Notes under the pieces: model-generated
Told to the model about the DNA's origin: nothing
Databases searched by the model: none
The model's input: the letters and a program-made list of their open reading frames with translations, nothing else
In this document: in pieces, positions 12,945-64,000 of the stretch
Layout: each line of letters starts with the position of its first letter
Numbering within the stretch: the stretch's first letter is position 1
IMG/VR virus record: IMGVR_UViG_3300007754_000002
DNA length: 64,000 bases
Origin: an uncultured virus (IMG/VR IMGVR_UViG_3300007754_000002)
Taxonomy: Duplodnaviria > Heunggongvirae > Uroviricota > Caudoviricetes
Direction: 5' to 3' (one strand)
Translations under genes and position numbers: made by a program

Positions 12945-13030
12945 GCCTCTATATACGAGAGGTCAGATGAATATCCGGGAAGTTTCCAAAGCAGGCTCGT
13001 ATAGGGTTGCATCAGCACTTGGAGCAGCAA

Positions 13031-14447: not shown

Positions 14448-14474
14448 CTTTCTACAGGCGGCTCGTATACTCCC

Positions 14475-20900: not shown

Positions 20901-20948
20901 GTTAAGGAAGTTGACGAGCTGGAAGCTGTCTGGTTCCAGGGGGAGTAA
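15000..20948 (+). CDS. uvrD: UvrD/PcrA/Rep superfamily-1 helicase precursor with two inteins
   Basis: LTPEQ, AGAGSGKTRVL (I), TSFTRK (Ia), TTHS, VDEAQD (II), IGDDKQ|SIYEFRGAD (III), NFRSG (IV), TMHSWKGLE (V), ERRLAYVAITRA (VI); long N-terminal extension and acidic tail. Confidence 0.95.
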   Translation: MSFLMTTENAPAQPRIASQDAGAGHLLLIDLSAFFIGFQAYADVSRESGGGSPTLTQRGVVLIKRFQPLLIPQMEAVLGPLVDEDAAFARLRPQYRRAILAKRGAEQAAIQAGFLKEVFILLKRRPERLRQVFTGKASNGAMKLGRTVAQGDPRSILNQLALLPPMTSRRVLRKWLREAAKEVGAAPSPMEALISDVSEAKDMGARLRDLAARITAAREAGREEEAATLAEERAGLMAAVNEAAEESSAPAAVLGAAASAATSDPGHSYETEIGKKVNLTPEQEAAMMVRGRGIIAAGAGSGKTRVLAAKVFWHIDSGNMSPSNVLATSFTRKSSEELIRRIEDYGTSIDRWARDGFGTTHSIAGRMLNQIAPGFRRPEGYIGPKENWKHVTILRLAMEQVQMSVPGIRPPAPRGFWDEAVASASSLADEQAKEDLAEACTTAIGYFQWIMNQGWWSRGNKSFGRAPDMVQFLQHIRGKHPRELKDNEKKAANNIFKKAKRYRKPLRYRVAATKKAPVTPAPEGKVAAPVNFPAPDNGEGDSPGGKGAKLKEYKFYNVPAEQWFNIGAKLIQEDDKGGEVPVPLGVFKNFISIAKGQAVTPSQAWANGIEGVVQPESDEAAVYGAYEWLKGNDGEPKFQNLGDMTDLLIDTVSALVGSERVRGMVQNRFKVVMVDEAQDLNKCVHGDTEVQTPDGPKTVRNLQEGDQVLSYENGRVLYNRVRERVPSSWERGYKVHLSTGETLAMSPDHRIYATPLDGCREGEMALYLMYRKDMGFRIGTSARLFENRGTSQGRAAQEGADCAWILEIGTPEEMLFKEQALSLTHGVPTYIFGGTARGCDQDRINQLFQEFGENGRDLLGHYDLSFEHPHWVASAAERGRKNRQVVNFCAHRNKSGQRGSHVSMTWTNGDFDLNIPVYQIKEGRKMAARLTVDYAAGRAAALDIARRTGAFVVESLSLHNEKLPLVTASALFPGMKVPVWRGGVDLKTMLPIEDYKEIARRLEVSLDDVGGSRNTGKVEIHTFLRDLQIQRGVRDILPPVDGAVVDLVEIEQVEQIEGGDYWDISVEGAHNFFGNGVLSHNCQHILFGLIAGYYDHLTQEPREDKQMTADTYCLIGDDKQCLEKGSMISTPSGRVPLHTLSEGDSVLSYRNGQIVPQNLRHMVQSTWTWGYKVTLADGRTLTMSPTHKLWSTAAPTPGKVMVYLMHRSDLGFRIGITNKGWAKRGTGYLKGFGGRAFTEKAEKLWVLNVCDTREEALLLESSLSLEWGIPTCVFNGEKRGLNQDRINTIFQRFGGNGARLLEDRHLKESLPHWSSQGYTKHGRGRSVVQLTAHTAQGTQVTLEWPDDSLDERVAHIPPSRKGNVYTIRSDGGRRIRRYFPNYREGLRFAEALAEAVGGFLSHQLSTSEGKITYLTASALLVGMQLAVDDGEGGLDLMTITDIEKTKGEFIDVDVEDASNLFAEQILVSNSIYEFRGADPKEFINKSDMTPGGDQFSTRLITTNFRSGSSIVNSANSLIARNTAQGQQIPMTCNAFPGRKGEGEILRRSAASTSDAAVQVAEEIQGRIQDGLVPPHDKRKGHGGYAHFGVAVRSNREAYEYGIEMLKRGIPFKSKARFFNDKYSKAMIGWMTLAEGRSAEEENQALLDALAAPFSKVSPKTLQDRLSRVDGRWADQIQKPTVRRRVYRHPTALERLEKFAKNVKKAKAASGSPEEILNEILDLVGIDEQDFKNALITAVREDADRMAELEAAAAGDVTEDAIIEEALAPLAPLLGLLREKEDLNEAMGFVRRLKKVNDKISSGDDVDDLDRDAVTIGTMHSWKGLEAPEMFIPMVAGKFPRVPKGEEKAPEGPALWAERRLAYVAITRAEDRAILMDIPSTNPKARVHASQFFEEACIPIQGISGGEDEEEVREASIQEEEPQGQPEAGPAPGEEMDEDAILDLIDAVDKMPEDLPKGSEPLPEAPEDVKEVDELEAVWFQGE
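17046..18242 (+). mobile_element. Intein 1 (399 aa) in the helicase, just after Walker B
   Basis: DEAQDLNK|CVHGDT ... MSPDH (block B) ... YWDISVEGAHNFFGNGVLSHN|C. Confidence 0.92.
18360..19406 (+). mobile_element. Intein 2 (349 aa) in helicase motif III
   Basis: GDDKQ|CLEKGS ... MSPTH ... FIDVDVEDASNLFAEQILVSN|SIYEFRG; removing it restores GDDKQSIYEFRGA. Confidence 0.92.
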
Positions 20949-32115: not shown

Positions 32116-32175
32116 CAGGGACTCCTTTTCGCGACTTTACCAGCAAACTGCGGGCAGAGACTCGTATAAGGACTC

Positions 32176-48955: not shown

Positions 48956-49627
48956 ACCAGCCAGATTTTATCGACGAGCTATCAGGGCTGAGAACTACTT
49001 TTTCCCGCCTTGACGTACACATCCCTGCCCTCTTCGGATAAGCCACCGTAGTTGAAATCTTCACTGCTCTCATTTCAGCTTCCGCCACCGTCATGATCCT
49101 CTGGATCATCGTCGGAGACCCGCAGGGGTTCTTCCTACGTCTCTCCCAGGACAGGCAAAAGACCAAGCGGGCTCTGCTGAAAGTCAAGCAAGCGGAAGCA
49201 GAGGCCCGGAAGCTGGAGGCGGAGGTGAAGCTGGGCAGGAAAGCCCTCCCATCCTACGTGGATCCGGACGACCCGGAAGACCTCGACGCTTACAAGCAGG
49301 CTCGGAAAGAGCTGATGGACGACGCCCTCAAGAGCAGTCAATGAGCAGCGACCTGCTGAACACCCCTGTCAGACCGCAGAAGGAAGAAATCTGCGAGCAC
49401 TGCGGGGAGACCTTCACAGGTCTCTTCCATTGCCAGTCCATCACCCAGATCAAGATGGTTGACGGCGACTTCCTCATCGGAAAGCTGTCCGAGTGGACAC
49501 CGCCTGACCGAGAGGTGGTCAGGGTGACCACCCTGGACTCCCTGGACTCCCCGGTCACCTTGGTCCACCCGACTGGCGACAAGAAGGAAAAGAAGTAAGT
49601 TTCCGTTGGGGACTCGTATAGAGCCTC

Positions 49628-51459: not shown

Positions 51460-52025
51460 AAACCAGCGGTGAAGTTCAGGAGGTCTTCGTCGGGCACGAC
51501 GTACCGGCGGCAGCCATCAAGCTCGCCAAGAAGGCGAAGAAGAGGCTCTGGCTCGCTTCTTACACCTGTCCGGGTGGAGCACTGGCGAATGTCCTCGCGA
51601 CCAAACACTCGACAGGGAAAAAGGTCCGACTGGTGGTGTCAGCGGTCCCGGTGGAGGCTCTCCCTGACTACTCCTTCCCGGCGAAGAGGGTCTCGGTAGA
51701 CGGCGGCACCATGCACGCCAAGTTCCTCATCTGCGATGACACCGTGCTCCTGGGCAGCTCCAACTGGAACGACACCGGGAGCCGAAACGTCGGGATCAGA
51801 ATCACCGGGACCGCGGTTCGTCACTTCGCCGCGGAGTACAACCGCCTCTGGAAGCTGAAGGAAGGGGACCCTCTCCTGCGAGGGGATCAAGCCCTGGCCC
51901 TCATCGCCAAGCTGGTGAAGAAGAAGGGTCACTCAGACTTCGCCACCCTGGTCGCCAGGAGATGCCGGGCCCGGGGCTACATGACCCCCAAAGAGCAAGC
52001 CGCCATCACCCGGGCTCTGAAATGA
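51456..52025 (+). CDS. Phospholipase D-like (Nuc-type) nuclease with a single HKD motif
   Basis: MHAKFLICDDTVLLGSSNW; ATGA coupling. Confidence 0.85.
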   Translation: MKTSGEVQEVFVGHDVPAAAIKLAKKAKKRLWLASYTCPGGALANVLATKHSTGKKVRLVVSAVPVEALPDYSFPAKRVSVDGGTMHAKFLICDDTVLLGSSNWNDTGSRNVGIRITGTAVRHFAAEYNRLWKLKEGDPLLRGDQALALIAKLVKKKGHSDFATLVARRCRARGYMTPKEQAAITRALK

Positions 52026-52303
52026 CCAACACGACCCCCCGTTACTTCGCGGGAAGATACGAAGAGCACCTTGAAGTGCAGTCCAGCAACTCCGCCCCCG
52101 AGGCTGCCTCCGAGTACGCGAACGGCTACGGGATGGAAGAGGGCGAGTGTGTCTATGTCGCCTTCGGTGTGCTCACTGACGAAGAAGGAGACGAGCCCGG
52201 CACCCACAGGATCGACGTGTGGGAGTGGTCAGAGTGGCGGGTGCTCCCCGACAACGGAGGCCCGCTCCAGGTGGAGCCGTGGCCTCAAACAGAGACCTCA
52301 TGA
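52022..52303 (+). CDS. Small acidic hypothetical protein
   Basis: ATGA overlap with the PLD gene. Confidence 0.55.
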   Translation: MTNTTPRYFAGRYEEHLEVQSSNSAPEAASEYANGYGMEEGECVYVAFGVLTDEEGDEPGTHRIDVWEWSEWRVLPDNGGPLQVEPWPQTETS

Positions 52304-52318
52304 CCGCTCCGCCCCAGC

Positions 52319-52753
52319 TTGGTCCCCTCCTCATTCCCGAGGTGTCAGATGGTTGAAGCTCCTCCCGGCCTGCTCTACGTCATCGTCGCCCAGGAGTGGC
52401 AGGGGACCCCTGCTCACCTGGACTTGGAAGAACCCTCTCGTTGCCTGATCATCGACGGGTTCGGTGCCCACCTCTCGCCTCCCCAGATCCGAGCCCGGAT
52501 GCAGGAGTACACCGCCCTCGCTGAGTCAGCCGAGGTCGCCATCTGGTTGGTGACCATCAACCGCACGGCTCTCGATGAGATGTGGCGAGAGGGGGGTGAT
52601 CGGGTGTACCTGCCGATGGCTGACGGGGGGCTCATGCCCCTGGAAACCGCCTTTGACCCCAACTGGCTCTACCATTTCACCCTGGGAGATCTCTACGACC
52701 GAGGGAAGCTGGATGAGAGCCAATGGCGACCCCAGCAGTCTCAAAAACCCTGA
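52319..52753 (+). CDS. Degenerate C-terminal half of an AAA_21-like ATPase
   Basis: CLIIDGFGAHLSP (Walker B/D-loop-like), LVTINRTALD (H-loop-like), LGDLYDRG; no Walker A. Confidence 0.45.
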   Translation: MVPSSFPRCQMVEAPPGLLYVIVAQEWQGTPAHLDLEEPSRCLIIDGFGAHLSPPQIRARMQEYTALAESAEVAIWLVTINRTALDEMWREGGDRVYLPMADGGLMPLETAFDPNWLYHFTLGDLYDRGKLDESQWRPQQSQKP

Positions 52754-52782
52754 CCCACAAACCCCCACCCCGAGCCCCAAAA

Positions 52783-53547
52783 ATGTGCATCCTCGCCCAG
52801 CCTGTCGAGAGCGTCTCCGACACCTCCATCTTCGCCGCCTTCAACACTGACCGGACCCGTCAGGTCGTCGTCTACGAGATGGCGGTGGAATTCCGTGGTT
52901 CCGGGAACGCCATGATCCTCCCCGTCCCGGTCCCCATGAGAGGAAACAGCTCGACCGGGGAGATCGAGCTGATCGACATGACCGCGTATCCGAACTTCTT
53001 CAAGGATCTGGCCGACCTCTTCCGCCCCCGATACCGGGGCCTGATGAAGGGGGTGCCGTCGAACAGCTTCCTGAAGGTAGTGGACGTGGGCAGCTACAAG
53101 GTGTCCATCGCAGCGACGGTCGATGAGGCGGAGAGGGTGAACCCCGACGTGTCCACCCTCTCCGCTGAGACCCGGGCGGCGCTCAACGAGCACTACCGCT
53201 TCGGCTACCACTTCATCGTCGCCCAGCTCCAGACCGGAGGGAAGTTCCACCCTCTCGCCTACAGCCACCCCACCTTCGGTGTGCTTTTCTTCCCCACCCG
53301 CCACGAGCACGGAGACGGACACCACCTCCCGAAGTGGGATCACACCCTCTACCACCAGCCCGGTGGTGCCTTCATGGAGGAGCCTCGGAGCGTCCAGACT
53401 CGGAAGCAGGAAGGCCGCAGCATCCAGAGCGTCCAGAGTCAAACCATCCGGGTGGCGGGACTCGCAGAGTTTCTCTCCGTCACCGAGCCGATCGAGCAGA
53501 AGAAGATCAAGGGGCATGGGAAGAACCTGGACCTTCAGCTCTGGTAG
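52783..53547 (+). CDS. Hypothetical protein, DUF2330-like
   Basis: QVVVYEM...NAMILPVP...VGSYKVS...HPLAYSH pattern. Confidence 0.55.
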   Translation: MCILAQPVESVSDTSIFAAFNTDRTRQVVVYEMAVEFRGSGNAMILPVPVPMRGNSSTGEIELIDMTAYPNFFKDLADLFRPRYRGLMKGVPSNSFLKVVDVGSYKVSIAATVDEAERVNPDVSTLSAETRAALNEHYRFGYHFIVAQLQTGGKFHPLAYSHPTFGVLFFPTRHEHGDGHHLPKWDHTLYHQPGGAFMEEPRSVQTRKQEGRSIQSVQSQTIRVAGLAEFLSVTEPIEQKKIKGHGKNLDLQLW

Positions 53548-53598
53548 CTAGAGAGACCCTTCAGAATCGCGGCGTGAGTGCCCTTCCACCGAAATCCA

Positions 53599-54342
53599 TC
53601 AATCCCACGCCTCTCCAAACAGATCCAACTTCTGCGTCGCGGCTGACCATCCCGCCAGCCGCACCTCTGACCGATGCTCCCGACGATAACCGAACGTCGG
53701 GATCGTCGTGCTGACGCCATACCCGAGCACCATCCCTGGCACGGCGAGGCGTGACTTATCCCCATGAGGACCCGGAATCTTCGCTTTGATGTAATCAAGG
53801 TCCCCCATCCTCATCCGACCCAGGAAATCCCGCCACCGAGGAAACTCCTCCCGAACCGTGTCTACGACCACCTGCCACACGTCAGGCGAAGTCACGTCCA
53901 AGAAGACCCCACCCCCATCCACCTGAAAGGGAACCCAGGGGGTCTCCAGCGCGAGCCACTGAACCCGCTTACGGAAACGAGCCCGGTGCTTCAAAACTCC
54001 AGGGACCCAATCCTGTAGACCTTTAGCCTCCAGGTCAGAGAGCAGGGCTCGGTAGATCCCCTCGCCTTCATCACGCCAGTGAGCATAAGCCCCCGCGATC
54101 GTCTTAGCCCCCGCGATCCGAGTGAGCAGCTCCGGCGTCCAGGGGGGAGCCAAGTCCCCAGGCTCCAGGTATCGGTACGCCGTCTCATCGCTGCTGAGCA
54201 GCGAGAGCACCTCCGGTCTCACCATCCCAGGATGATCCCGGACCAGGAACCGAACCATGCTCATCCAGTGCCAGGACCGCCGGTTCGCTCGTAACCACAC
54301 CCCCTCACTCTCATAACGACCGTCGATCCTCATTTCCAACAC
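53599..54342 (-). CDS. Hypothetical protein
   Basis: 247-aa ORF. Confidence 0.6.
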   Translation of the reverse strand: MLEMRIDGRYESEGVWLRANRRSWHWMSMVRFLVRDHPGMVRPEVLSLLSSDETAYRYLEPGDLAPPWTPELLTRIAGAKTIAGAYAHWRDEGEGIYRALLSDLEAKGLQDWVPGVLKHRARFRKRVQWLALETPWVPFQVDGGGVFLDVTSPDVWQVVVDTVREEFPRWRDFLGRMRMGDLDYIKAKIPGPHGDKSRLAVPGMVLGYGVSTTIPTFGYRREHRSEVRLAGWSAATQKLDLFGEAWD

Positions 54343-54735
54343 CTGATTCCGAATAAATTAAGGTCAGGAGGCTCAACGCCCTCCGATGAAGAGAACGGGC
54401 CCGGATCCACCAGAGGCTCCAGCCCCACGCCTTCCGATACAGCCAACGAGCAAACCGATTCACCGGAGGCTCATACACCACGAGCTGACGAAGCCACTGC
54501 CCACACCGAGGACACTCCGCCGGCAAACGAGGGACATACCCCCGATTGCAGTGAGCACAGGAGAACCAGAACCCGAGCTGATCACCCGGCTCCGATATGT
54601 CCCCAGGCGTTAAATCCCAGGCGGCGTGCTCCACCGTCCCCAGCACCAGACCCATCACCTGACCAAGCTCCCGCACGAAAGGGCTCTCCAATATTCTGGG
54701 TATACTCATATACATATAACCCATTTGACTGGAGA

Positions 54736-55365
54736 TTGTACGTGCCCGCTATGGAAGATTCGGTCCCGGAGACGAAGGGCGAGCGTTGCTATTGGCTCGC
54801 CTTTGCCAACCTGAAGGAAACCGGGAGCCCGCGGTGGGGATCTGTCGGTGAAGCTGTCGGAGCGCGAACGAGCACCGCGATCGGGCTAGCTCGGAAGTGG
54901 GCGACTCGACCGGAGAATCGCGTGGACTGGCCCTTGAAGGCGGGGCGGAGGAATGAGAAGAGGTACCGGGCTGGGGCGGAGATTTACAGGAAGCTGCGGG
55001 AAGACCCCACATGCCCCATGAGGTTCCTCGGCGGGAAGCCGGCAGAGCGGAGCCTCTACTACTTCGTCAAGACCGAAGGACCCAAGCCGGAGGACTTCAT
55101 CTGGCCCATCCCCGAGCGGGTGAACAACAAGGGGACCGTCTCGGGACGGGTCCGCCTCGCAGGGACCGACCGGATGGAGCTGGGAGCCCAGGTCTACAGC
55201 CGCCTGAGACTCAACCCACACCAGACCCTCGACCAGCTCGCGGAAGCCCTCGGCTATAGCCGGAACAAGATCAACAACGACCTCGCCCTCTATGTCAAGG
55301 CGAAGCGGCAGGACCCGGAATTTCTCTGGCCGATTCCAGGCCGCCGGAAGAAGTCCGCGGCTTGA
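54736..55365 (+). CDS. Protein with three tandem HTH-like repeats ending in WP(I)P
   Basis: WGSVGEAVG...DWP, FIWPIP, LDQLAEALGYSRNKINNDL...FLWPIP. Confidence 0.7.
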   Translation: MYVPAMEDSVPETKGERCYWLAFANLKETGSPRWGSVGEAVGARTSTAIGLARKWATRPENRVDWPLKAGRRNEKRYRAGAEIYRKLREDPTCPMRFLGGKPAERSLYYFVKTEGPKPEDFIWPIPERVNNKGTVSGRVRLAGTDRMELGAQVYSRLRLNPHQTLDQLAEALGYSRNKINNDLALYVKAKRQDPEFLWPIPGRRKKSAA

Positions 55366-56518
55366 TCATGGGAGCCTGCCAACGCAGTTGCTCCACGACC
55401 TCCTCCCAGCCAGCGTAGCTCCCCCGAGCTTCCAAAATCGCTACCAGACGCTTCAAGTAAGCCCCGGTCAAACCCCCTGTCGCCTGAACAACATCGGTCA
55501 GTCGAGACCCGCACCCCAGGATCTCCTCCCCGTAGTGACGGAGGATCTCACGCCGCGCGTCTGCGTCCGGACGTGGGAGGAAGATGACCCTGTCAATACG
55601 ACCCGGCCTCATCCCAGGCCAGTACAAAGCACCAGGACGCTGCATCTCCGTGACCGCCTTGTCGTCTACCATCAAAGTGCCCAACACCATCGGCACCAGA
55701 CCCTCCAGGGCTTCAAACAACTCCAGGAGTTGATGGTCCACCTCGCCCTGCCGCAGCGGAATGTCATCCACCAGGACAGCGTCCGGACCCATCAGCTTTA
55801 AAGCGTTCAAGACCCCGTGAGCGCGTCCCTGATCCAAGGTCGGTGCCGACACCCTCACGAGAGTCTTCAGGCCAGCCTGGGCGACTATACGGCGAGCTAA
55901 CGTCGTCTTCCCACTCCCTGTCGGACCCACCAGGAGACAGGTGAAACCTGACCCCACACTGTGACCCGGACCCAACACGTCCGAAGGCTTCGGGGACCCC
56001 ACAAAATCCCGAAGCTCCCCCATCGGCCGATAGTCAAACACCAACGAAGTCGGGAAGGAACTCCCGCCCTGCGGACGAAAGAAGAGCGTCAAGGAATCCG
56101 ACTCCGCCCAAAAAAGAGGACGGAAGAGATCCCGCGGCAAACCACCCCGAACATACAGCTCCGAAAACTGACCGTAAGGAGACAAAACAACCGCCGTGTC
56201 CCGACCCAGAAACTCATGGACCGTCAAGTGATCATCCCCCACCACCATCGTCCGACGATGGTAGTCCGACGACAAGAGAGCCGAAATCAAACGGCTGTTC
56301 ATCGGGAGATCAAACGGCCGATAACCCCGCTCATCCAGGTAGATTGAAGCATTCTCCGCCGGGAGATACAGCCCCGCGAGACGACCCGCGACCGCGATAG
56401 AACCCAAACCCCACTCGACAACCCCACCACCCCGAGCCTTGGACAGGAAATCCAACACATCACTGGCTGCCTGAGAATAACGGACCAGACGACGAAGATG
56501 ATGACGATAGGTAACCAT
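55295..56518 (-). CDS. AAA+ ATPase (BCS1/FtsH-like AAA module)
   Basis: GPTGSGKTT, VLVDD, RPGRIDRVIFLPRPD, GLTGAYL. Confidence 0.85.
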   Translation of the reverse strand: MVTYRHHLRRLVRYSQAASDVLDFLSKARGGGVVEWGLGSIAVAGRLAGLYLPAENASIYLDERGYRPFDLPMNSRLISALLSSDYHRRTMVVGDDHLTVHEFLGRDTAVVLSPYGQFSELYVRGGLPRDLFRPLFWAESDSLTLFFRPQGGSSFPTSLVFDYRPMGELRDFVGSPKPSDVLGPGHSVGSGFTCLLVGPTGSGKTTLARRIVAQAGLKTLVRVSAPTLDQGRAHGVLNALKLMGPDAVLVDDIPLRQGEVDHQLLELFEALEGLVPMVLGTLMVDDKAVTEMQRPGALYWPGMRPGRIDRVIFLPRPDADARREILRHYGEEILGCGSRLTDVVQATGGLTGAYLKRLVAILEARGSYAGWEEVVEQLRWQAPMIKPRTSSGGLESAREIPGPAASP

Positions 56519-56554
56519 TCAGGGCTCGCTCGTATACAAGAGGTAAAGGACCTG

Positions 56555-56953
56555 ATGCCGCAGCCTACCCTACGAGAGATCGCCGTCGAATGGGCCCAGC
56601 TCGTCCTGGTTACCAACGCGCATGGGGAAGAATACCCGGCGTGGAGAGACCTCCGAGCAGAACGACTCAGCCCCCTCCCAGCGCGAGCCAAACGACACGC
56701 GATCCGACACCTCCTGAACGACAACTGCTACCCCGTCCAGATCTACGGAAAGCGGTCAGCCGAGAACAGGAAGCGGGCGAAAGAGGAGGCTGAAGTTTCG
56801 GAGAACGGTACACCACACCCCGATCTCCTACGTTTTAAACCCCCGTTTTCAGACGCCCCCATTCCCACCCCCGATCACGACGAAGACCCGAAAGCTCCCA
56901 GACCACCGTCTCCAGACCCGCTCCCAGCCACCCCGACTCAGAAACTTTTCTGA
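56555..56953 (+). CDS. Hypothetical protein with Pro-rich tail
   Basis: Promoter motif 56510-56536 and AGGA RBS. Confidence 0.55.
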   Translation: MPQPTLREIAVEWAQLVLVTNAHGEEYPAWRDLRAERLSPLPARAKRHAIRHLLNDNCYPVQIYGKRSAENRKRAKEEAEVSENGTPHPDLLRFKPPFSDAPIPTPDHDEDPKAPRPPSPDPLPATPTQKLF

Positions 56954-56985
56954 ATACCTTAAACCGTCTCCCCGAAATTCAGGTC

Positions 56986-57014
56986 TTGCCTTTGGCCTCG
57001 TCTTCACATAGGTT
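56986..57014 (+). promoter_or_regulatory. Candidate host sigma70-type promoter for the sigma-factor gene
   Basis: TTGCCT-N17-TAGGTT followed by AGGAG. Confidence 0.45.
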
Positions 57015-57071
57015 CTTGATCCCTCCTGCTCAGACAGGAGATCAAAAACATGTAGACCAGGACCAGACGCG

Positions 57072-58154
57072 ATGAACCTTGGCAGGATTTCTGGACTGTC
57101 CCTCGACCTCCAACACCTCCCGCCCCCGGCCGTACTCGCCCCACAGGAAAAGAGAAGGCTCTACGCCCGACGAGAACACGGCGGAGGAGAAGTCCTCATC
57201 CTGGATAACGGGTTCCTCCATAACCATACGGTCCACCCCTCCGGCCGACAGCTCATGAGGGCCCTCTACGGACACGATCACTCCGGGATGACCCCAGACC
57301 GGTACTTCCGCACCGGGAAGCACGCCCCCAAGTTCGAGACTCCTGAGAACCCCTTCTTTGAAGACCTCCAGAGACAGGTCAACGACAGGTTCAAAGAGAT
57401 CTCCGCTCGTAAGAAGCCCAGGGTCTCCGTCCGTAAGAAGCCCAGGGTCTTCCCCACCGTCAACGCCGCCGATATTGACGGCTTCCTCGACCTGCTCAGG
57501 CAGTCGCACCAGACTCCACAGCCTACCCCACCTGCCGAGACCGGGGTCGATCTCCGCCCGACCCCGATCGGGATCGACCTCGCTAACCGAGCCAATGAGG
57601 TCCGACGCCTCCTCTTCGCAGGCTTCGGGAAGAAGATGGCTGCTAAAGGCTATGACCCGGAAGACGTCCTTCAGGAAGTCTATAAAGGTCTCCTGACACG
57701 AGATATGGGTAAGTCCCGATTCGACCCCTCCCGATCCTCCTTCGGGCACTACGTCCACCTCGTCTGCCAGTCCGTCCTCGCAAACTACCACCGGAAAAAG
57801 TCCCGACAGAGAAGCATCGAACAAGTCGGCATGATCGGAATGGACTCCGACTCCGGTGACCTCCGCCATATGGACGCCGCTACCGCCGCCGATAACCTCA
57901 CCGCAAACCGATGCCTCCTCGCCGGACAAACCTACGCCGCTGATGACGCCGCTGCCGACTCAAGAGCAAATGACTCCCTCCGACGACACCTGGAAGACCA
58001 ACAGGTAGGAGACCTCGCTCTCAACTCCCTACCCCTCGTCCGACAAGGCTACTCCCGCTCCGAGATCGCGTCTCAACTCCAAGAGAAACCCTCCCGGGTA
58101 GGAAGAAGCCTCTCCAAGCTCAGGAAGGCCACCGCTATCTGGCAATGGAGATAG
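57072..58154 (+). CDS. ECF-like RNA polymerase sigma factor with N-terminal extension
   Basis: Region 2: DPEDVLQEVYKGLL...FDPSRSSFGHYVHLVCQSVLANYHRK; region 4: GYSRSEIASQLQ...VGRSLSKLRK. Confidence 0.82.
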   Translation: MNLGRISGLSLDLQHLPPPAVLAPQEKRRLYARREHGGGEVLILDNGFLHNHTVHPSGRQLMRALYGHDHSGMTPDRYFRTGKHAPKFETPENPFFEDLQRQVNDRFKEISARKKPRVSVRKKPRVFPTVNAADIDGFLDLLRQSHQTPQPTPPAETGVDLRPTPIGIDLANRANEVRRLLFAGFGKKMAAKGYDPEDVLQEVYKGLLTRDMGKSRFDPSRSSFGHYVHLVCQSVLANYHRKKSRQRSIEQVGMIGMDSDSGDLRHMDAATAADNLTANRCLLAGQTYAADDAAADSRANDSLRRHLEDQQVGDLALNSLPLVRQGYSRSEIASQLQEKPSRVGRSLSKLRKATAIWQWR

Positions 58155-58277
58155 GACAAGGAGAGAGAGAGACAGGGGGGGAGACAGGGAGAGAGCTACC
58201 GGGAGGCCCTGACAGGAGGCCCTGTCCCCCGGACAAGGCTCCCTCCCCCCTCGTCCGACTACCCCTCTCGCAGGGCC

Positions 58278-58365
58278 TAGGGCCTAGGGCCTCCTCTCTC
58301 AGGGCCTAGGGCCTCCTCTCTCAGGGCCTAGGGCCTCCTCTCTCAGGGCCTAGGGCCTCCTCCTC
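58278..58365. repeat. Four tandem 22-bp repeats (C/T)AGGGCCTAGGGCCTCCTCTCT
   Basis: Units at 58278, 58300, 58322 and 58344 (last imperfect), plus extra AGGGCCT heptamers. Confidence 0.9.
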
Positions 58366-58937
58366 CTCTTCTTCCTCCTCTCCTAGGGCCTCCTTTCCTC
58401 GGAAAATTAAACCCACAGTGAAATTGAGCCTGATCGACCCCAAAAATCGGGAAACGGGGCTGGGTTTTTGATCTCCCAAGGGCTCTCGCCCGACCCCTCC
58501 GAGTGATCCTGACCCCTCTCCGGTCTCCGTATTGCTGGAGACCAATTTGAGGCTACCCGACCTGATCTCAACAGGTAGTTGGGGGAGGCCTCCGATTTGA
58601 TCTCACCCGATCGCGAAAAACCGCGGCATTAACTGAGGCCTCCCCCTAGGGCGGGTCAAAATCGCCGCATTGAACCTATATGGAAAATGCGGCCGATTTC
58701 GGAAACCGTTCCTGGAATTATAAAGGTTGAAGGACAAGACAGGAGGAGAGCCTTAGCTCTGAAGGCTGGTGGCTTTCCCCGGCTTGTCCCTTGTCCTCCT
58801 GGTCTCCCCGGCTGGAGGCTTGTCTCTGGGGAGGGGGGTCTCTCAGGGGAGGTTTTTCCAGATCGGGATCTCAGATCGTTTTTGAGCTGGCGGTGGTGGG
58901 TAGAAAAATTGGCCTAAAAAGCCAAAGGGGGGGAGTC

Positions 58938-59487
58938 TTAGTCCGCCGAGATCCATCGCCAAGTGAGGTTGACTCGTGGTCCGACCTGCTTTTTGGTTTT
59001 GGGTATGCAGTGTTGCCAGCGTTGTTGGGCTCCTGTTTTCATCAGGAGGAGGGATCCGTGTTGGAGGTTGAAGTTGTGGGTCTCTCGGGAGGTGTTGTGT
59101 CGTACCCGGAAGCGTCGAGTAGCTCCGAGGGAGAGGGAGGCGATCCAGTCTTGGCCTCCGTGGTTGTAGTCGTCATCGCTGTGCCATGAGACGGAGTCGG
59201 AGCCATCTCGATAGAGGTTTTGCGAGGACGGAGTTGAAGGGTCGTCCGGTGAGGTTCTGGAGTGGGAGCAGGATCTCGGGGAGGGTTGCTCTGGGGTGTC
59301 TGACGCCGTTTGAGTAGGCGTACTCCTCTCCGTACATGGCGACGAGTCTGGGGAGTGGGATCTCTCGTCCGTAGAGTCGAGTGGAGAGGCTCTGCCAGTG
59401 GAGAGCCTCTCTGAGGTCTCTCATGGAGATCTGCGTATGGGTCTGGACGAGTTGGAAGTCAGCGTTGAGTTGCTGGCTCAGGCTCAT
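58938..59487 (-). pseudogene. alkB: AlkB-family 2OG-Fe(II) dioxygenase (ALKBH2/3-like) split by a 1-nt frameshift
   Basis: PRLVAMYG...FNSVLA then, in another frame, NLYRDGSDSVSWHSDD...IASLSLGATRRF...LQHGSLLLM...WQHCIPK...RVNLTWR; one extra T in TTTT at 59218-59221. Confidence 0.88.
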
Positions 59488-59957
59488 AGGTTCATCCCTC
59501 GGGGATCTTGGTTCCGAGTGGGGATACGAGTGAGTTGAGTTTTGTCTCCCAGGTTTTTCGGATATCGTCTCGTGTATCGGGTGGGAGTTTGGACCAGGGG
59601 ATCAGGATCCTGTCGGTGAAGGCGAGGATGAGGTCATGGGCTTGCGTAGCGGGGTCGGCTTGTAGTTGTGTTCTGGACAGGTAGAGGGTTTGGACCCAAT
59701 CGAGGAAGAGCGCGGCATTTACCGCAGGGGAGGGCGGAGCCGAAGGTGTTGTGTTGTTGGAACCTGGGGCAGTCTGGGGACACCGCGTTGGTTTGATCGC
59801 AGGACTCGAACCAGGGGCTTTGGTGGTCGAGGCATGTGGGGCAGGTAGAGACGGAGGAGCGACTCTGGTTCTGGTTCTGGGATGCTTTGGGGTTTTCATC
59901 CCATTGGGAGTTTTCGCAGGGGGTCTTTGCGGGGCATTGGGAGCAGGGTTTCATCGG

Positions 59958-60380
59958 TTACCTATCTCCCCAGGCGGCGATGAGTTCTTTGAGCAGGGCG
60001 GCGTTGCTCTTGGAGAGTCTGCTAGTGTTCCAGGCGGAGAAGAGTTTTCGCGGGAGCCATTCTTGGAAGCTGTCGGGTTTCCAGCCGGTTTCCTCCAGAA
60101 ACTCCTGGTGGAGTCTTTGGAGGAGGGCGTGGGTTACGAGGTGTCTTCCTGCTTCATTCAGTTCCCGTGTGAGGTCATTGATGGGGAGCCACATCCCGAC
60201 AGCCTCTTGGGGGCTGTGGAAGAAGTCTGTTCCGATGTATGCGAGCTTCCCATCGGACATGGGTCCGACTCGGACGAGTTCTACGCCGAGGTGGTGTAGG
60301 TCATCGGGTCTTGGTGTTCGTCTTGTTCCGACGAAGAGGTAGAGCCCGGGTTGGGTGGGGAGAGTGGAGGTCGCTTTCAC
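59958..60380 (-). CDS. Hypothetical protein
   Basis: 140-aa ORF; PTQPGLYLF N-terminus typical of phage ORFans. Confidence 0.6.
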   Translation of the reverse strand: MKATSTLPTQPGLYLFVGTRRTPRPDDLHHLGVELVRVGPMSDGKLAYIGTDFFHSPQEAVGMWLPINDLTRELNEAGRHLVTHALLQRLHQEFLEETGWKPDSFQEWLPRKLFSAWNTSRLSKSNAALLKELIAAWGDR

Positions 60381-61174
60381 GGGGCGAGGTTCTTGTTGTT
60401 GTCGAAGACCATCGCCGCGACCACTCCGTTGTCTCGGGCGACGAAGAGAGAGTGTGTCGCCGTAGTCCAGACTCGATCGGGGTAGGTTCGGGCTGAGTAG
60501 ACGGGGTAGAGGCTGCTGGGGTCGTTGTGGTCTTTCCCGTCGGCTTCGGCTTCGGCCTTGGCGTCCGCGAGGTTCTGGTCATCCCAGAAGGCGATCGTGT
60601 TGCCGTTCTTGAGCCAGTGGTATTCCCTCATGTCTCGGAGGGGGTACCCGAGCCCTTCGGTGAGTCCGAAGGCGGCGGTAAGGTTCTTGCGGGCTGTGGT
60701 GAAGGCATCGATCGCTTCGTTGATGTTCATGACGCTTGGGGGGATGGTCCAGCCTTGTTGAGCCAGGACGTTGATCGCTGTGTGGGCGTCGAGGCCCACG
60801 AGGTCGTGGTGTGTTTCGGAGTGCCGGTGTGGTTCCGGGTGTGGTCCGGCTGCTGCGGTCACCATCCGTCGAGTGACGGAGAGGGTGATAGCGAGCCTGG
60901 ATTTTGTCAGTCGGATCGAGAAGGGTTGCCGTGGGTCACGGGTGGAGGTGTTCTGGGCTCCTGGCGGTGGTGCCGTGTGGTGTTTCCTTGCGCGGTTGCA
61001 GGCCCGGCAGGCGAGGGCGAGGTTGTACAGGTGGGCCTCTCCGCCTTTGTTTTTTGGCTTCAGGTGTTCCAGGGATGGTGGGAAGGGGTCGGGGACCTTG
61101 CACCAGCAGCATTGGTTTCCGTCTCGTTGCCGGAGGGCATTGAGCAGGAGGTCTCTGTCGGGTCGTCGGCCCAT
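60377..61174 (-). CDS. HNH endonuclease domain protein
   Basis: LRQRDGNQCCWC...SLEHLKPKNKGG...NLALACRACNRARK, followed by unrelated C-terminal regions. Confidence 0.85.
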   Translation of the reverse strand: MGRRPDRDLLLNALRQRDGNQCCWCKVPDPFPPSLEHLKPKNKGGEAHLYNLALACRACNRARKHHTAPPPGAQNTSTRDPRQPFSIRLTKSRLAITLSVTRRMVTAAAGPHPEPHRHSETHHDLVGLDAHTAINVLAQQGWTIPPSVMNINEAIDAFTTARKNLTAAFGLTEGLGYPLRDMREYHWLKNGNTIAFWDDQNLADAKAEAEADGKDHNDPSSLYPVYSARTYPDRVWTTATHSLFVARDNGVVAAMVFDNNKNLAP

Positions 61175-61180
61175 TGGGGG

Positions 61181-62197
61181 CTACACTTCAACGGACATGT
61201 GGGTGAAGTCCACGGTGTTGTGTGCGATATCTCCCGGATCGGTCCCGACGGCTTGGAGGATGGTTTCCCGGCTGGGCATGGTCGGGTTGGGGAGTGCCTT
61301 CCAGGTGGGCGGGTTATCCAGTCGTCCCCATCGGGAGGCGAGGGCGGTGTGTGTGATCTTGCCTTCGGGCGAGAGCTTGATGGCGACGCTGTGGTGGGGC
61401 CTCTGCTCGTAGGGGGTCAGGCAGATTTTCCGGCGTCGGTAGTCCCCCTCTTCCAGGGATCGGTCCTGGTACTCCTTATCGGAGAGGGCCCGAAAGCGAC
61501 CGAGGTTGAAGTCGAGGTAGAGGGTGGGGCTCTCGCCATAGATCTGGTGATAGAGAGCCCCATAGGCCGCCAGGAGGGCCCAGAAGCCCGTCAGGGTATC
61601 TGGGGTCGGGTTGGCCCAGGTCGCGGTCTCAGGGTGGCTCTCAGCGTCTCCCTTGGGGGTCCCTGAGAGGGAGACGTGGGTAACGATGGGATCGGGGGCT
61701 TCGTAGGTGTTGAAGTACCGGGTGTTGTCGGGCCAGGGCTTCCCTGGCTTCTGGACGCGGGGGTAGCCATGGAGGCTATCACCGTGTCCCCGCCAGCAGG
61801 AGTCATGGTGTCCGCCTGCGATCACGTAGGCGGGTGCGGTGTGGTCGTAGGAGTGGGCGAACCGCCTCCGGTAGGCTTCGACCTTTTCGGGCGTCTCAAG
61901 CCTGTACTCGGAGTAGGCGTCTCCGGTGATGTAGGCTCCGGGCTTGGAGGGGTCGAGGACTCTCCAGTGGACGTAGTTGGAGGTCGCCTGGAGCTGGTAT
62001 GTCCAGGCGAAGGTCTCGGGCATCTCGGGGTCGCGGTCCTCATTGGCGAGGACCGGGTCCACGGTCGCCTGGAGGCTGAAGGTCAGCCACCTATCGGGCT
62101 GACAGGAGTTCCGCGGCAGGATGCCGCGGCTGTGGACGTAGCCGTAGAACTTGTCGATCAGGCGGGACCAGGGGAGAGCGTTCGGGAGCAGAGTCAT
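61181..62197 (-). CDS. Hypothetical protein
   Basis: Promoter motif 62219-62245 and GGAGG RBS. Confidence 0.75.
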   Translation of the reverse strand: MTLLPNALPWSRLIDKFYGYVHSRGILPRNSCQPDRWLTFSLQATVDPVLANEDRDPEMPETFAWTYQLQATSNYVHWRVLDPSKPGAYITGDAYSEYRLETPEKVEAYRRRFAHSYDHTAPAYVIAGGHHDSCWRGHGDSLHGYPRVQKPGKPWPDNTRYFNTYEAPDPIVTHVSLSGTPKGDAESHPETATWANPTPDTLTGFWALLAAYGALYHQIYGESPTLYLDFNLGRFRALSDKEYQDRSLEEGDYRRRKICLTPYEQRPHHSVAIKLSPEGKITHTALASRWGRLDNPPTWKALPNPTMPSRETILQAVGTDPGDIAHNTVDFTHMSVEV

Positions 62198-62240
62198 TGT
62201 AGTAAACCTCCACTCCTCTATACGAGTACCCTGTCGAAAC

Positions 62241-62711
62241 TTACAGGATTCCGAAGAACGGGTCTTGTGAGATATAGGCGGGGAATCTTGGGGACATGAG
62301 CTTCTTGGAGACCCAGACGATTCGGTCTTTGGGTACGGCGGCGAGGTTTCCGTGGGGGGCCATTCCGAAGGCGAGGGTTGTGTGGTCCTGTCCGCGGTAG
62401 GTCATGGTGTGGTGTTTGGCGGAGGAGTCGCAGATTCTCCGATATCGGTATCCGTCTTTCACCTTGGCGAACCAGTGTCCGTTGGGGACGTCACCTGCGA
62501 GTCGCAGTCTCTTGAGCCGGAAGGGTCGTCCTTCGGCGTATTTCTCCCAGAGGGCCAGGAGAGCGGCTCGTCGGGTCTGGTGGTTGACCTTAGCGAATTG
62601 GAGGAGGGCTTCTTTGAGCGGTCCTGACGGATCGGGTGTGTCGGGATCGGAGGCCCAGCACCAGTCGTAGTTCTGGAGGAGGTCTTCGATGGTGGCGAGG
62701 TTGGTTGTCAC
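62241..62711 (-). CDS. Hypothetical protein
   Basis: GTGA overlap with the upstream gene. Confidence 0.6.
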   Translation of the reverse strand: MTTNLATIEDLLQNYDWCWASDPDTPDPSGPLKEALLQFAKVNHQTRRAALLALWEKYAEGRPFRLKRLRLAGDVPNGHWFAKVKDGYRYRRICDSSAKHHTMTYRGQDHTTLAFGMAPHGNLAAVPKDRIVWVSKKLMSPRFPAYISQDPFFGIL

Positions 62712-64000
62712 AGCAGGCCGCTTCGGATGAGGTGAGCGAGCTTTGCTCCGAGTCGGGAGAGGGCGTCGTTGTACTTCTTGGAGAGGTGGTTGCCTTCGTA
62801 CTCGTGCCCGAGTTCGTGGATCATGAGGTCATCGATCGCCTGTTGCCGGGCGGGGTCTTTGAGGTTGAACCACCGGAGCCCGAGGGTTCCCTGGTTGAGC
62901 CTCATCCGGCGGTCTCCTTGTCGGTAGTCTGCGAGCTGCCCCCCCTTGGGTTCGTTGATGACTTCGACGGTGACGGTGTGCCCGATGAGGAGGTTGGCGG
63001 CCTTTCGGATGTAGGCGACCACCTCTCGGACGTCGGGGTTCATCTCAGGGGGTGCGATGAGGTCGAAGCCCCAGATGGTTTCCTTGGTCGTGCTGAATCG
63101 TGGGAGCCGACCAGCGGGGGGGAGGGGGTCTCGACCCTCTCCTTGGAAGCGTTTCCGGTTCTCCCGAATTCCGGCGGAGAGCTGTCGTCCTCGGACGGGG
63201 GTCCAGCCTGCTGCGGTGGCTCGGTTATTGGCTTCGCGGTCGGAGGGATCCCACATGAAGCGTTTGGTCCCGAAGCGTTTGTCCATGACGGAGTTGAAGG
63301 CTTCCTCGGAGATTCTCGGGGAGGCGACCGCTTCGGACACCCAGGTCTCTGCGGCGTCGGCCGGGGTCAGGCGTTCGTGGAGGTGCTCCAGGGCTTTGGT
63401 TCTCAGGTCGCGGAGGTAGCTGGGAGGGACGTTGTTCCTCTCCATCGCGATGGGGACCTTCTGGTCCACGTCATAGCTCCACCTGTCCCCGGTTTCCACG
63501 ACGGGTATCCCCATCTCGTAGAGGAACCCTTTGGCGCCTTCGGGCGGGGTGTAGATGGCAACCTGGGTGACTCTCCGAGTCCGTCTCATCGGGCCCTCAG
63601 GGGAGGCGACCATTGTCGGGAGGGTCACCTTGAAGGACCCGTGCTGTTCCGGTCGAACCAGCGTCTCTCCGTTGACGCAGGTGAGGATGTTCTCGGGGGG
63701 AATGAATCGCTTGACAGCGTCCAACTCCGCTCGGACCTCTTCGGGGGTCATTTCCAGCAAGGCCCAGAACTCGGTCCCGAAGTCCCTCTTCTTCCGGCGT
63801 CCATCCAGACGCCGGCCTCGGTGATCGAACACGACCACGCCGGTCGTGGAAGAGATCCTGGCTTCGATCGCTGTCGCCAGGACGAGCTTTTCGCCCAGGT
63901 TGAACCGGCCTCGCTTCCCCGGGTCTGTCGCCTTGTAGCTCCGGGCGAACAGGGTGTAAGCGTGGCTCAGATCCCTGAAGCCCGTGGGGGAGTCATCCAC
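62708..64000 (-). CDS. GHKL (Hsp90/MORC-like) ATPase fused to a C-terminal HExxH domain, 5'-truncated by the window edge
   Basis: DDSPTGF, KRGRFNLGEK, ISSTT, GTEF boxes; MIHELGHE. Confidence 0.65.
   Translation of the reverse strand: MDDSPTGFRDLSHAYTLFARSYKATDPGKRGRFNLGEKLVLATAIEARISSTTGVVVFDHRGRRLDGRRKKRDFGTEFWALLEMTPEEVRAELDAVKRFIPPENILTCVNGETLVRPEQHGSFKVTLPTMVASPEGPMRRTRRVTQVAIYTPPEGAKGFLYEMGIPVVETGDRWSYDVDQKVPIAMERNNVPPSYLRDLRTKALEHLHERLTPADAAETWVSEAVASPRISEEAFNSVMDKRFGTKRFMWDPSDREANNRATAAGWTPVRGRQLSAGIRENRKRFQGEGRDPLPPAGRLPRFSTTKETIWGFDLIAPPEMNPDVREVVAYIRKAANLLIGHTVTVEVINEPKGGQLADYRQGDRRMRLNQGTLGLRWFNLKDPARQQAIDDLMIHELGHEYEGNHLSKKYNDALSRLGAKLAHLIRSGLL

Follow-up and report, generated by a model that had tools for sequence, protein, structure and literature searches.

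A local strand-skew inversion beside a sigma-factor-like gene marks a candidate replication origin region in an uncultured marine huge phage and some of its relatives

The locus and its features

The DNA analyzed here is a 64-kb stretch ("the window") of an uncultured virus recorded in IMG/VR as IMGVR_UViG_3300007754_000002. An earlier note, made from the sequence alone, had placed a probable replication origin at positions 58155-58937. The segment lies between a sigma-factor-like gene and an AlkB-like gene. Analysis of this segment and of related contigs revealed a conserved local inversion of strand skew that is anchored to the sigma-like gene across huge phages, and this result is worth following up.

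As the note had stated, 58155-58937 is the longest gene-free segment of the window, with 783 nt versus 687 nt for the runner-up in a crude gene map. It is bordered on the left by the stop of the sigma-like gene at 58154 and on the right by that of the AlkB-like gene at 58938. The purine tract, tandem 22-mers, pyrimidine tract and A/T-run-rich DNA that had been described were all present in the sequence. The GA-rich purine tract (58155-58195, + strand) lies immediately 3' of the stop codon of the sigma-like gene and is followed by two inverted copies of a heptamer, AGGCCCT (58204-58223, - strand; at 58204 and 58217). Next come a segment of heptamers and 22-bp repeats (58272-58391, + strand), delimited by Tandem Repeats Finder (TRF) and motif counts, and a pyrimidine (CCT)n tract (58356-58384, + strand), seen with TRF and in the sequence. 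The A/T-run-rich core, with lower G+C, covers 58400-58780 and contains the skew turning point. The right flank (58800-58937, + strand) is rich in G runs and contains a hairpin (58925 to 58909, - strand) that resembles a terminator of the AlkB-like gene.

No coding-like G+C pattern by codon position was observed in any of the small open reading frames (ORFs) within the stretch (54-76 amino acids), and the two that were scanned had no Pfam match. The sole Rfam match over 50-64 kb was a sub-threshold plant microRNA model (23.8 bits versus 75), which we attribute to chance, and neither transfer RNA nor transfer-messenger RNA genes were found within the window. Among deposited phages, blastn gave no DNA match for 5 kb of the window.

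Strand skew turns sharply within the stretch

In 1-kb windows, GC skew stayed between -0.15 and -0.20 from 53 to 58 kb and between +0.21 and +0.34 from 59 to 63 kb, and on each side of the switch the sign of AT skew was opposite to that of GC skew. The turn takes place between about 58.45 and 58.78 kb. The cumulative keto skew (GT-AC) of the entire window has its minimum at 58687, and the cumulative G-C curve has a local minimum at 58646 and its window-wide minimum at 3661. With a jump statistic, D, defined as the GC skew of the 4 kb to the right minus that of the 4 kb to the left, a value of +0.41 was obtained at 58800, and the runner-up in the window reached 0.11. The sharp switch from C/A-rich to G/T-rich DNA claimed in the earlier note was thus borne out, both by D and by the keto minimum.

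Strong skew is confined to about 52.5-63.4 kb, approximately 6 kb per side. As judged by third-codon-position skew, the + strand is C/A-rich in a left arm (52500-58450) and G/T-rich in a right arm (58780-63400), and over the other 52 kb the skew is close to zero or weakly positive. From 52723 on, third-position skew in the left arm ranges from -0.16 to -0.47. Measured on the + strand, the third-position GC skew there was -0.38, -0.47 and -0.35 for genes on the - strand and -0.22, -0.16 and -0.44 for genes on the + strand. Seven - strand genes in the right arm gave +0.28 to +0.53, and genes at 46-52 kb were near zero. Genes on both strands therefore share the skew, as had been noted before. Because third positions carry it with the same sign in genes of both orientations, the skew is not a coding effect; it is mutational and depends on which DNA strand and which side of the switch are considered, irrespective of gene direction. 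A single gene inside the skewed left arm (54736-55365) was without strand skew (third-position GC skew +0.04), and it may be a recent insertion, since a newcomer should lack skew under a time-dependent mutational process.

The sigma-factor-like gene and its huge-phage setting

The gene to the left of the stretch, P0001 (57072-58154, + strand; 360 amino acids), encodes a sigma-factor-like protein, predicted to contain regions 2 and 4 of the sigma-70 family. These regions (sigma region 2 to 4) occupy the C-terminal half, and the N-terminal domain of approximately 160 amino acids is without an assigned family. A profile of 30 family members matched sigma-H (PDB 3mzy, E=6e-6) over residues 182-342. 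The AlphaFold2 (AF2) model had a predicted local distance difference test score (pLDDT) of 75.5, and its top Foldseek matches were all sigma factors, although weak (E 2.6e-3 or worse). As a single sequence, P0001 stayed under the Pfam cut-off (Sigma70_r2, 21 bits versus 24). A 24-bp tandem repeat (2.1 copies, 92%) at 57400-57450, in the poorly conserved linker, doubles a basic peptide, and AF2 pLDDT there is below 50.

A large protein collection lists 242 relatives of P0001, and for the cluster to which P0001 itself belongs it records a contig of up to 160,718 bp. In IMG/VR, neither P0001 nor the neighbouring P0003 protein retrieved relatives as a single query sequence, so that a profile search was required; with the family profile, the gene was located on 38 IMG/VR viral contigs, many of them 180-618 kb, and it was also present on metagenome contigs of up to 552 kb. 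A tblastn search of the sigma-like protein against plasmids gave no match. The region 55000-62000 was present in six metagenome runs, marine or from seawater and all of DNA, which belong to two studies; three of them may be the source. Since the sigma-like family sits on large viral contigs and the stretch occurs in marine runs, we assign the window to an uncultured marine huge phage or a closely similar element.

The inversion recurs at the sigma-like gene of related phages

The comparison covered 69 loci, namely all 38 from IMG/VR and 31 of 80 from metagenomes, the other 49 being too short for flanks. Evaluation was possible for 64 of the 69, those in which a point near the sigma-like gene was flanked by 3 kb to the left and to the right. 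A jump of at least 0.25 within 1.5 kb of this gene was observed at 14 of the 64 loci, corresponding to 12 of approximately 55 distinct phages after duplicates had been dropped, and at all 14 loci it was the maximum of the locus. D was 0.39 in L071, the closest relative (48% identity).

Five whole or near-whole contigs were also compared: G004 (435.8 kb), G001 (188 kb), G002 (618.7 kb), G005 (536 kb) and G003 (400 of its 402 kb, counted from the start). In all five, no upward GC-skew jump on the contig exceeded the one at the sigma-like gene when 4-kb windows were used, with values of +0.32 in G004 (next 0.14), +0.31 in G001 (next 0.26), +0.44 in G002 (next 0.16), +0.24 in G005 (next 0.20) and +0.24 in G003 (next 0.19). 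With 3-kb windows the sigma-adjacent jump ranked first in four of the five and second in G003 (0.21 versus 0.22). In one of the five, G002, cumulative G-C skew over the 618 kb reaches its global minimum at the site, the customary criterion for an origin. Only a single other upward jump of at least 0.25 was present in the 2.18 Mb examined. It lies in G001 at about 108,300-108,950 (0.26-0.31), 15 kb from the sigma-adjacent jump, and no second sigma-like gene was found.

The switch does not have a fixed position relative to the gene. It is downstream of the sigma-like gene in the window, L092, L081 and L149, in gaps of 659-902 nt, upstream of it in L071, L083, L016, L028, L002 and L014, in gaps of about 270-700 nt, and inside it in L013. 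The third-position keto skew of the sigma-like gene is negative throughout in the window and positive throughout in L071, L083, L016 and L028; in L013 it changes sign approximately 450 nt into the gene.

Third-position keto skew on the + strand was then pooled over the window and 13 related loci. In the left arm it was -0.227 for genes pointing toward the switch (10,985 codons) and -0.199 for genes pointing away (6,153 codons); in the right arm the corresponding values were +0.290 (11,906 codons) and +0.157 (4,892 codons). Divergent genes were found at the same kind of switch in L002 and L014.

The flanking genes are not shared with the relatives, apart from an AAA ATPase in L071. A tblastn search (E<=1e-4) with 20 flanking proteins of the window (49-64 kb) gave no match in L001-L038, the set searched, which excluded L071 onward. 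The shared protein, P0003 (55295-56518, - strand), is a classical AAA ATPase in the left arm, with a G/T-rich coding strand; its ortholog in L071 (7826-9091, - strand; 44% identity) is likewise in the left arm. This ortholog and matches to AAA proteins of solved structure indicate that P0003 is a real gene. Both ATPase genes adjoin the sigma-like gene, and the proteins have an N-terminal part of approximately 190 amino acids without an assigned family. A more distant AAA protein occupies the same place in L092.

Repeat array and A/T-run-rich core

TRF identified a tandem array at 58279-58362 with a period of 22, 3.8 copies and 100% matches. The 14-mer AGGGCCTAGGGCCT has five matches in the 64 kb, all within 58272-58358, where 0.06 would be expected. 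Each 22-bp unit is built from the heptamer AGGGCCT and contains the near-palindrome GGGCCTAGGGCC; one further heptamer copy follows the CCT tract. Of the 19 copies of the heptamer in the whole window, 10 lie at 58272-58391, and its reverse complement AGGCCCT has seven copies in the window, two of them near the array (58204 and 58217). Slippage cannot make inverted copies, and the heptamer is therefore more than the unit of a mini-satellite. With 3.8 x 22 bp, the array has the form used to recognize iterons, at least three direct repeats of approximately 17-22 bp in helical phase. On geometry only, the heptamer and the 22-bp units are candidate protein-binding (iteron-like) sites.

The gaps of the relatives contain other repeats. 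Blastn-short gave no similarity above chance, and unrelated perfect repeats were found in L149 (32 x 3.4), L002 (26 x 2), L014 (13 x 3), L016 (13 x 2) and L004 (15 x 2.2). No tandem repeats of note were present at the switch in the gaps of L071, L013, L092, L081 and L088. Arrays that recur without sharing sequence could be private, fast-evolving binding sites, or slippage products in a slippage-prone region. Motifs shared between gaps were TCAGGGGA(G), in 3-4 of 8, and ATTGAG, in 3 of 8. Two further motif candidates were rejected: CTCTCAGGG, with 62 matches in the window versus 48 expected, is not specific to the stretch, and the clustering of GATC (10 in 561 bp versus 4.5 expected, p ~0.02 uncorrected) was discounted as GATC is common window-wide (8.1 per kb).

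To the right of the array, AAAA occurs 11 times in 58400-58960, where 0.74 occurrences would be expected, and the G+C of the core is 0.55 versus about 0.60. The 80-bp segment 58658-58737 ranks third in A+T richness across the 64 kb and sits at the skew minimum. The core also contains a perfect 12-bp inverted repeat (58581-58592 with 58635-58646) and a near-palindrome (58658-58671 with 58685-58699), and folding z-scores of the stretch were -3.9 and -4.2, one per strand. Judged by these features, 58400-58780 is a candidate unwinding and start zone.

Other neighbouring genes

The gene to the right of the stretch encodes an AlkB-like 2-oxoglutarate (2OG)-Fe(II) oxygenase (58938-59487, - strand; Pfam 2OG-FeII_Oxy_2, E=1.9e-23). 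It is split by a frameshift near 59173-59240, with an N-terminal frame from 59487 to 59173 and a C-terminal frame ending at 58938. Logan contigs of the runs X1, X3 and X4 are identical there, and the frameshift is thus not a one-off assembly error. In X1, X4 and X5 a population variant was observed in which 59372 is joined to 59931, with 66 other letters replacing 558 bp (59373-59930). The variant has about half the local depth in X1, and it removes the ORF at 59492-59899 together with the start of the AlkB-like gene.

Homing-type endonuclease genes are present near the switch: a LAGLIDADG gene directly after the sigma-like gene in L071 (11502-13085, + strand), and an HNH gene (60377-61174, - strand) 1.7 kb from the switch of the window. 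These placements may be accidental, or they may hint at break-dependent events there. The window otherwise encodes a MoxR-type ATPase, an exonuclease, an endolysin-like protein and HNH and phospholipase D (PLD) nucleases, and most of its genes are without an assigned function. A UvrD/Rep-type helicase of 1982 amino acids (15000-20948, + strand) carries two apparent intein/Hint insertions (Pfam Intein_splicing, Hint and Hint_2).

The 8-mer CTCGTATA (at most one mismatch) has 46 matches in the window versus 15.8 expected and is absent from 58155-58937. It occurs in sense orientation 4-25 nt before many gene starts, e.g. at 12996-13003, 14462-14469, 32161-32168 and 49613-49620, and may be a phage-specific promoter or translation-start signal.

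A fixed start of DNA synthesis as the favoured explanation

On both sides of the stretch, the strand whose 5' to 3' direction leads away from it is G/T-rich, which points to an outward process exposing one strand. When DNA is single-stranded its C and A deaminate, and leading strands, like displaced ones, become rich in G/T. With moderate confidence, we propose that 58155-58937 is a fixed site from which DNA synthesis departs both ways, i.e. a replication origin region. A fixed fork-departure site is supported because the polarity is strongest at synonymous sites, independent of gene orientation, and recurs beside orthologous sigma-like genes. The local anatomy also suits an origin, with a long gene-free segment, a phased repeat array, an A+T-rich segment at the skew minimum and inverted repeats. 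Forks or strand-displacing synthesis would set out from the A/T-run-rich core (~58.4-58.8 kb) to the left and to the right; the strand running 5' to 3' outward would, on either side, be single-stranded for longer and would become G/T-rich, mainly at synonymous positions. The footprint of only 5-10 kb may mean that origin-started synthesis is uncoupled for a few kb or short-lived, that forks often fail, or that the signal is diluted by starts elsewhere. The array beside the core could be a loading site for a DNA-binding protein. More speculatively, the conserved sigma-like neighbour suggests that the start may be activated or primed by transcription.

Several observations weigh against an origin. 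Neither the window nor G004, G001, G005 and G003 has a genome-wide or replichore-wide V in its cumulative skew; the signal in the window is local, and in these contigs it is a 5-25 kb anomaly on a monotonic background. The polarity that the earlier note had read as that of a bidirectional origin is real, strongest at synonymous sites and recurrent in relatives, but it is local and not replichore-wide as that reading implied. Of approximately 55 distinct related loci, 43 lack a strong jump, and the majority of more distant relatives gave no signal. About two thirds (67%) of the flanking coding sequence faces the site (22,891 versus 11,045 codons); these inward genes are head-on to outgoing forks, and convergent transcription should hinder unwinding. 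At 100-300 bp the core ranks only 7th to 8th in the window for low stability, and no sigma-70-like promoter was found in 57800-59300.

Other points concern the expected initiator and its sites. Searches of Pfam and PHROGs with 17 and 78 ORFs of the window gave no Rep, O or DnaA family, and within approximately 6 kb none of the Rep, DnaA, Orc or helicase-loader families turned up. P0003 was considered as an initiator and rejected, as it matches AAA proteins of the Cdc48/FtsH/proteasome type. The DnaA box consensus TTATCCACA, taken from general knowledge and allowing at most one mismatch, was without a match in 58155-58937; the whole window has five matches versus 4.6 expected. The 22-mers are perfect tandem copies that seem to be polymorphic between samples, as judged from Logan contigs, and the 22-mer has no exact match in IMG/VR and no counterpart in the relatives. 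Of the iteron interpretation offered in the earlier note, the repeat geometry stands, whereas the motif is unconserved and has no Rep-type initiator or DnaA box nearby; as a whole it is unproven.

Unlikely, but the first alternative to be considered, is a junction of physical genome ends at or beside the 22-bp array, or a fixed cut site, in which synthesis would start at ends that assemblers have joined via the repeats. The virion DNA would be linear and interrupted here, and forks would still depart from this point, started by strand displacement or by recombination- or break-dependent priming. Strand displacement started at such ends should give the same minus-to-plus polarity, and genes converge here, a frequent arrangement at phage genome ends. 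In four runs no Logan contig spans the array, and all of them end inside it (52000-58286, 58289-58340, 58311-...); such breaks, however, are what a 22-bp tandem repeat does to contigs built from 31-mers, and Logan contigs from four runs match the window on both sides of the array. In X1 and X3 the 52-nt repeat unitig was 3.7-3.8x as deep as the flanks, in agreement with the four copies of the assembly. The contig 58311-59372 had 0.9-1.2x flank depth in X1, X3 and X4, which argues, weakly given the coarse depths, against a collapsed terminal repeat. Each Logan contig has a single depth figure, and depth ratios of the core contig to its flanks ranged from 0.92 to 1.6, inconsistently across runs. 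Moreover, ordinary resection in the 5'-to-3' direction, whether from ends or from a pac cut, should produce the opposite polarity, and the related contigs L013, L071, L092, L081 and L088 cross the switch without a notable tandem repeat. That relatives cross their switches without repeats also argues against assembly artefacts as a general cause.

Outward transcription without replication is rather improbable as the source of the skew. Divergent promoters in the core would produce long, partly antisense transcripts or R-loops, and the skew would be a transcription-associated footprint. Deamination of the non-template strand does give the observed polarity, and the outward non-template strands are G- or purine-rich, favouring R-loops, on the + strand at 58820-58935 and on the - strand as the complement of the CCT/CT-rich 58240-58400; the conserved neighbour, being sigma-factor-like, is also in line with it. 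On the other hand, the lack of a sigma-70-like promoter in 57800-59300 counts here as well, the absence of the intergenic motif CTCGTATA from the stretch gives no support for outward promoters, and at most loci the transcripts would need to run 5 kb antisense through the convergent genes (67% of codons inward).

It is improbable that the stretch is an ordinary zone, intergenic or of terminator type, where two convergent gene blocks meet, with a mini-satellite that is unstable and a skew derived from the gene content or foreign origin of the blocks. The convergent stops (58154 and 58938), the hairpin at 58925-58909 and the perfect, unconserved repeats would agree with this, as would the unconserved flanking genes, given the 20 window proteins without a tblastn match in L001-L038. 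It is contradicted by third positions, at which the skew is strongest and has the same sign in both gene orientations, by orthologous sigma-like genes that have opposite skew according to the arm in which they lie, and by the presence of the same inversion at the same gene in phages with different flanking genes. A replication terminus, fork-convergence or dimer-resolution zone, with which genes converging on the site would be co-oriented, is very improbable: leading strands are G/T-rich in known systems and the strand running toward the site is C/A-rich, the reverse of what a terminus requires, the genes at such a switch are divergent in L002 and L014, and the site in G002 is a minimum of cumulative skew, not a maximum.

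Building on the favoured fixed start of DNA synthesis, we tentatively suggest a broader scheme, which is less likely to hold in full. A clade of huge phages may tie its main replication start to a specialised sigma gene: sigma-driven R-loops would prime synthesis outward, and short, uncoupled strand-displacing synthesis would then leave a scar of 5-10 kb (third-position skew 0.4-0.5) that marks the origin even where genome-wide skew is absent. The variable arrays would be fast-evolving, phage-specific loading sites.

Comparison with known origins

Iteron-type plasmid origins and ori-lambda, which binds the O protein, contain direct repeats approximately two helical turns apart, and ori-lambda lies inside gene O. 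The present stretch shares with them direct repeats in helical spacing, internal dyad symmetry (GGGCCTAGGGCC) and an adjacent A/T-run-rich segment. As with ori-lambda, the site is tied to one neighbouring gene, and in L013 the switch is even inside the sigma-like gene. It differs in that this neighbour is sigma-factor-like and not of the O/Rep type, in that the repeats are identical, abutting and unconserved across relatives, and in the lack of DnaA boxes in the stretch and a core G+C of 55%.

The primary origin of T7 is located downstream of the gene for its single-subunit RNA polymerase and has its own promoters and an AT-rich stretch. Similarly, the putative origin described here adjoins the gene for the phage's own transcription-specificity factor, suggesting transcription-dependent initiation. 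In contrast to T7, no equivalent promoters were found in the stretch, and the genome is 4-15 times larger.

The R-loop origins of T4 consist, according to the parts of PMC3016281 at hand, of a phage-factor-dependent promoter and an A+T-rich unwinding element. The same source states that leading-strand synthesis goes no further than about 2.5 kb without helicase, and that early forks are often unfinished or very slow before a later switch to recombination-dependent replication. As in T4, a phage-specific transcription factor could drive priming at an unwinding-prone core, and early-only origin use with unfinished forks would explain the local footprint. Unlike in T4, no promoter was identified in the stretch of the window, and no comparable local third-position skew is described for T4 in those parts of PMC3016281.

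For huge phages, the portion of PMC7162821 available reports bidirectional skew in about 30% of genomes, with some start points suspected to be origins by coverage and skew. The evidence presented here is of the same type as for these GC-skew origins, and the site in G002 (618 kb) is a global cumulative-skew minimum. However, the inversion is local (5-25 kb), without a genome-wide V, in the window and in four of five relatives. A literature search found no report linking a local inversion with a sigma-like gene in the parts covered of, among others, PMC7162821, a jumbo-phage review (PMC7824862) and a study of phage G (PMC12484599), whose supplements may hold individual origin calls.

Implications for huge-phage replication

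The origins of uncultivated huge phages are mostly unknown, and genome-wide skew is informative in only part of them, as far as the available portion of PMC7162821 goes. A local, orientation-independent skew inversion combined with a recognisable gene provides a sequence-only handle for candidate origins, which helps to orient genomes and to design coverage and termini analyses. The narrow footprint would suggest a brief origin-dependent phase, with most synthesis starting elsewhere, and would link transcription control with the start of replication.

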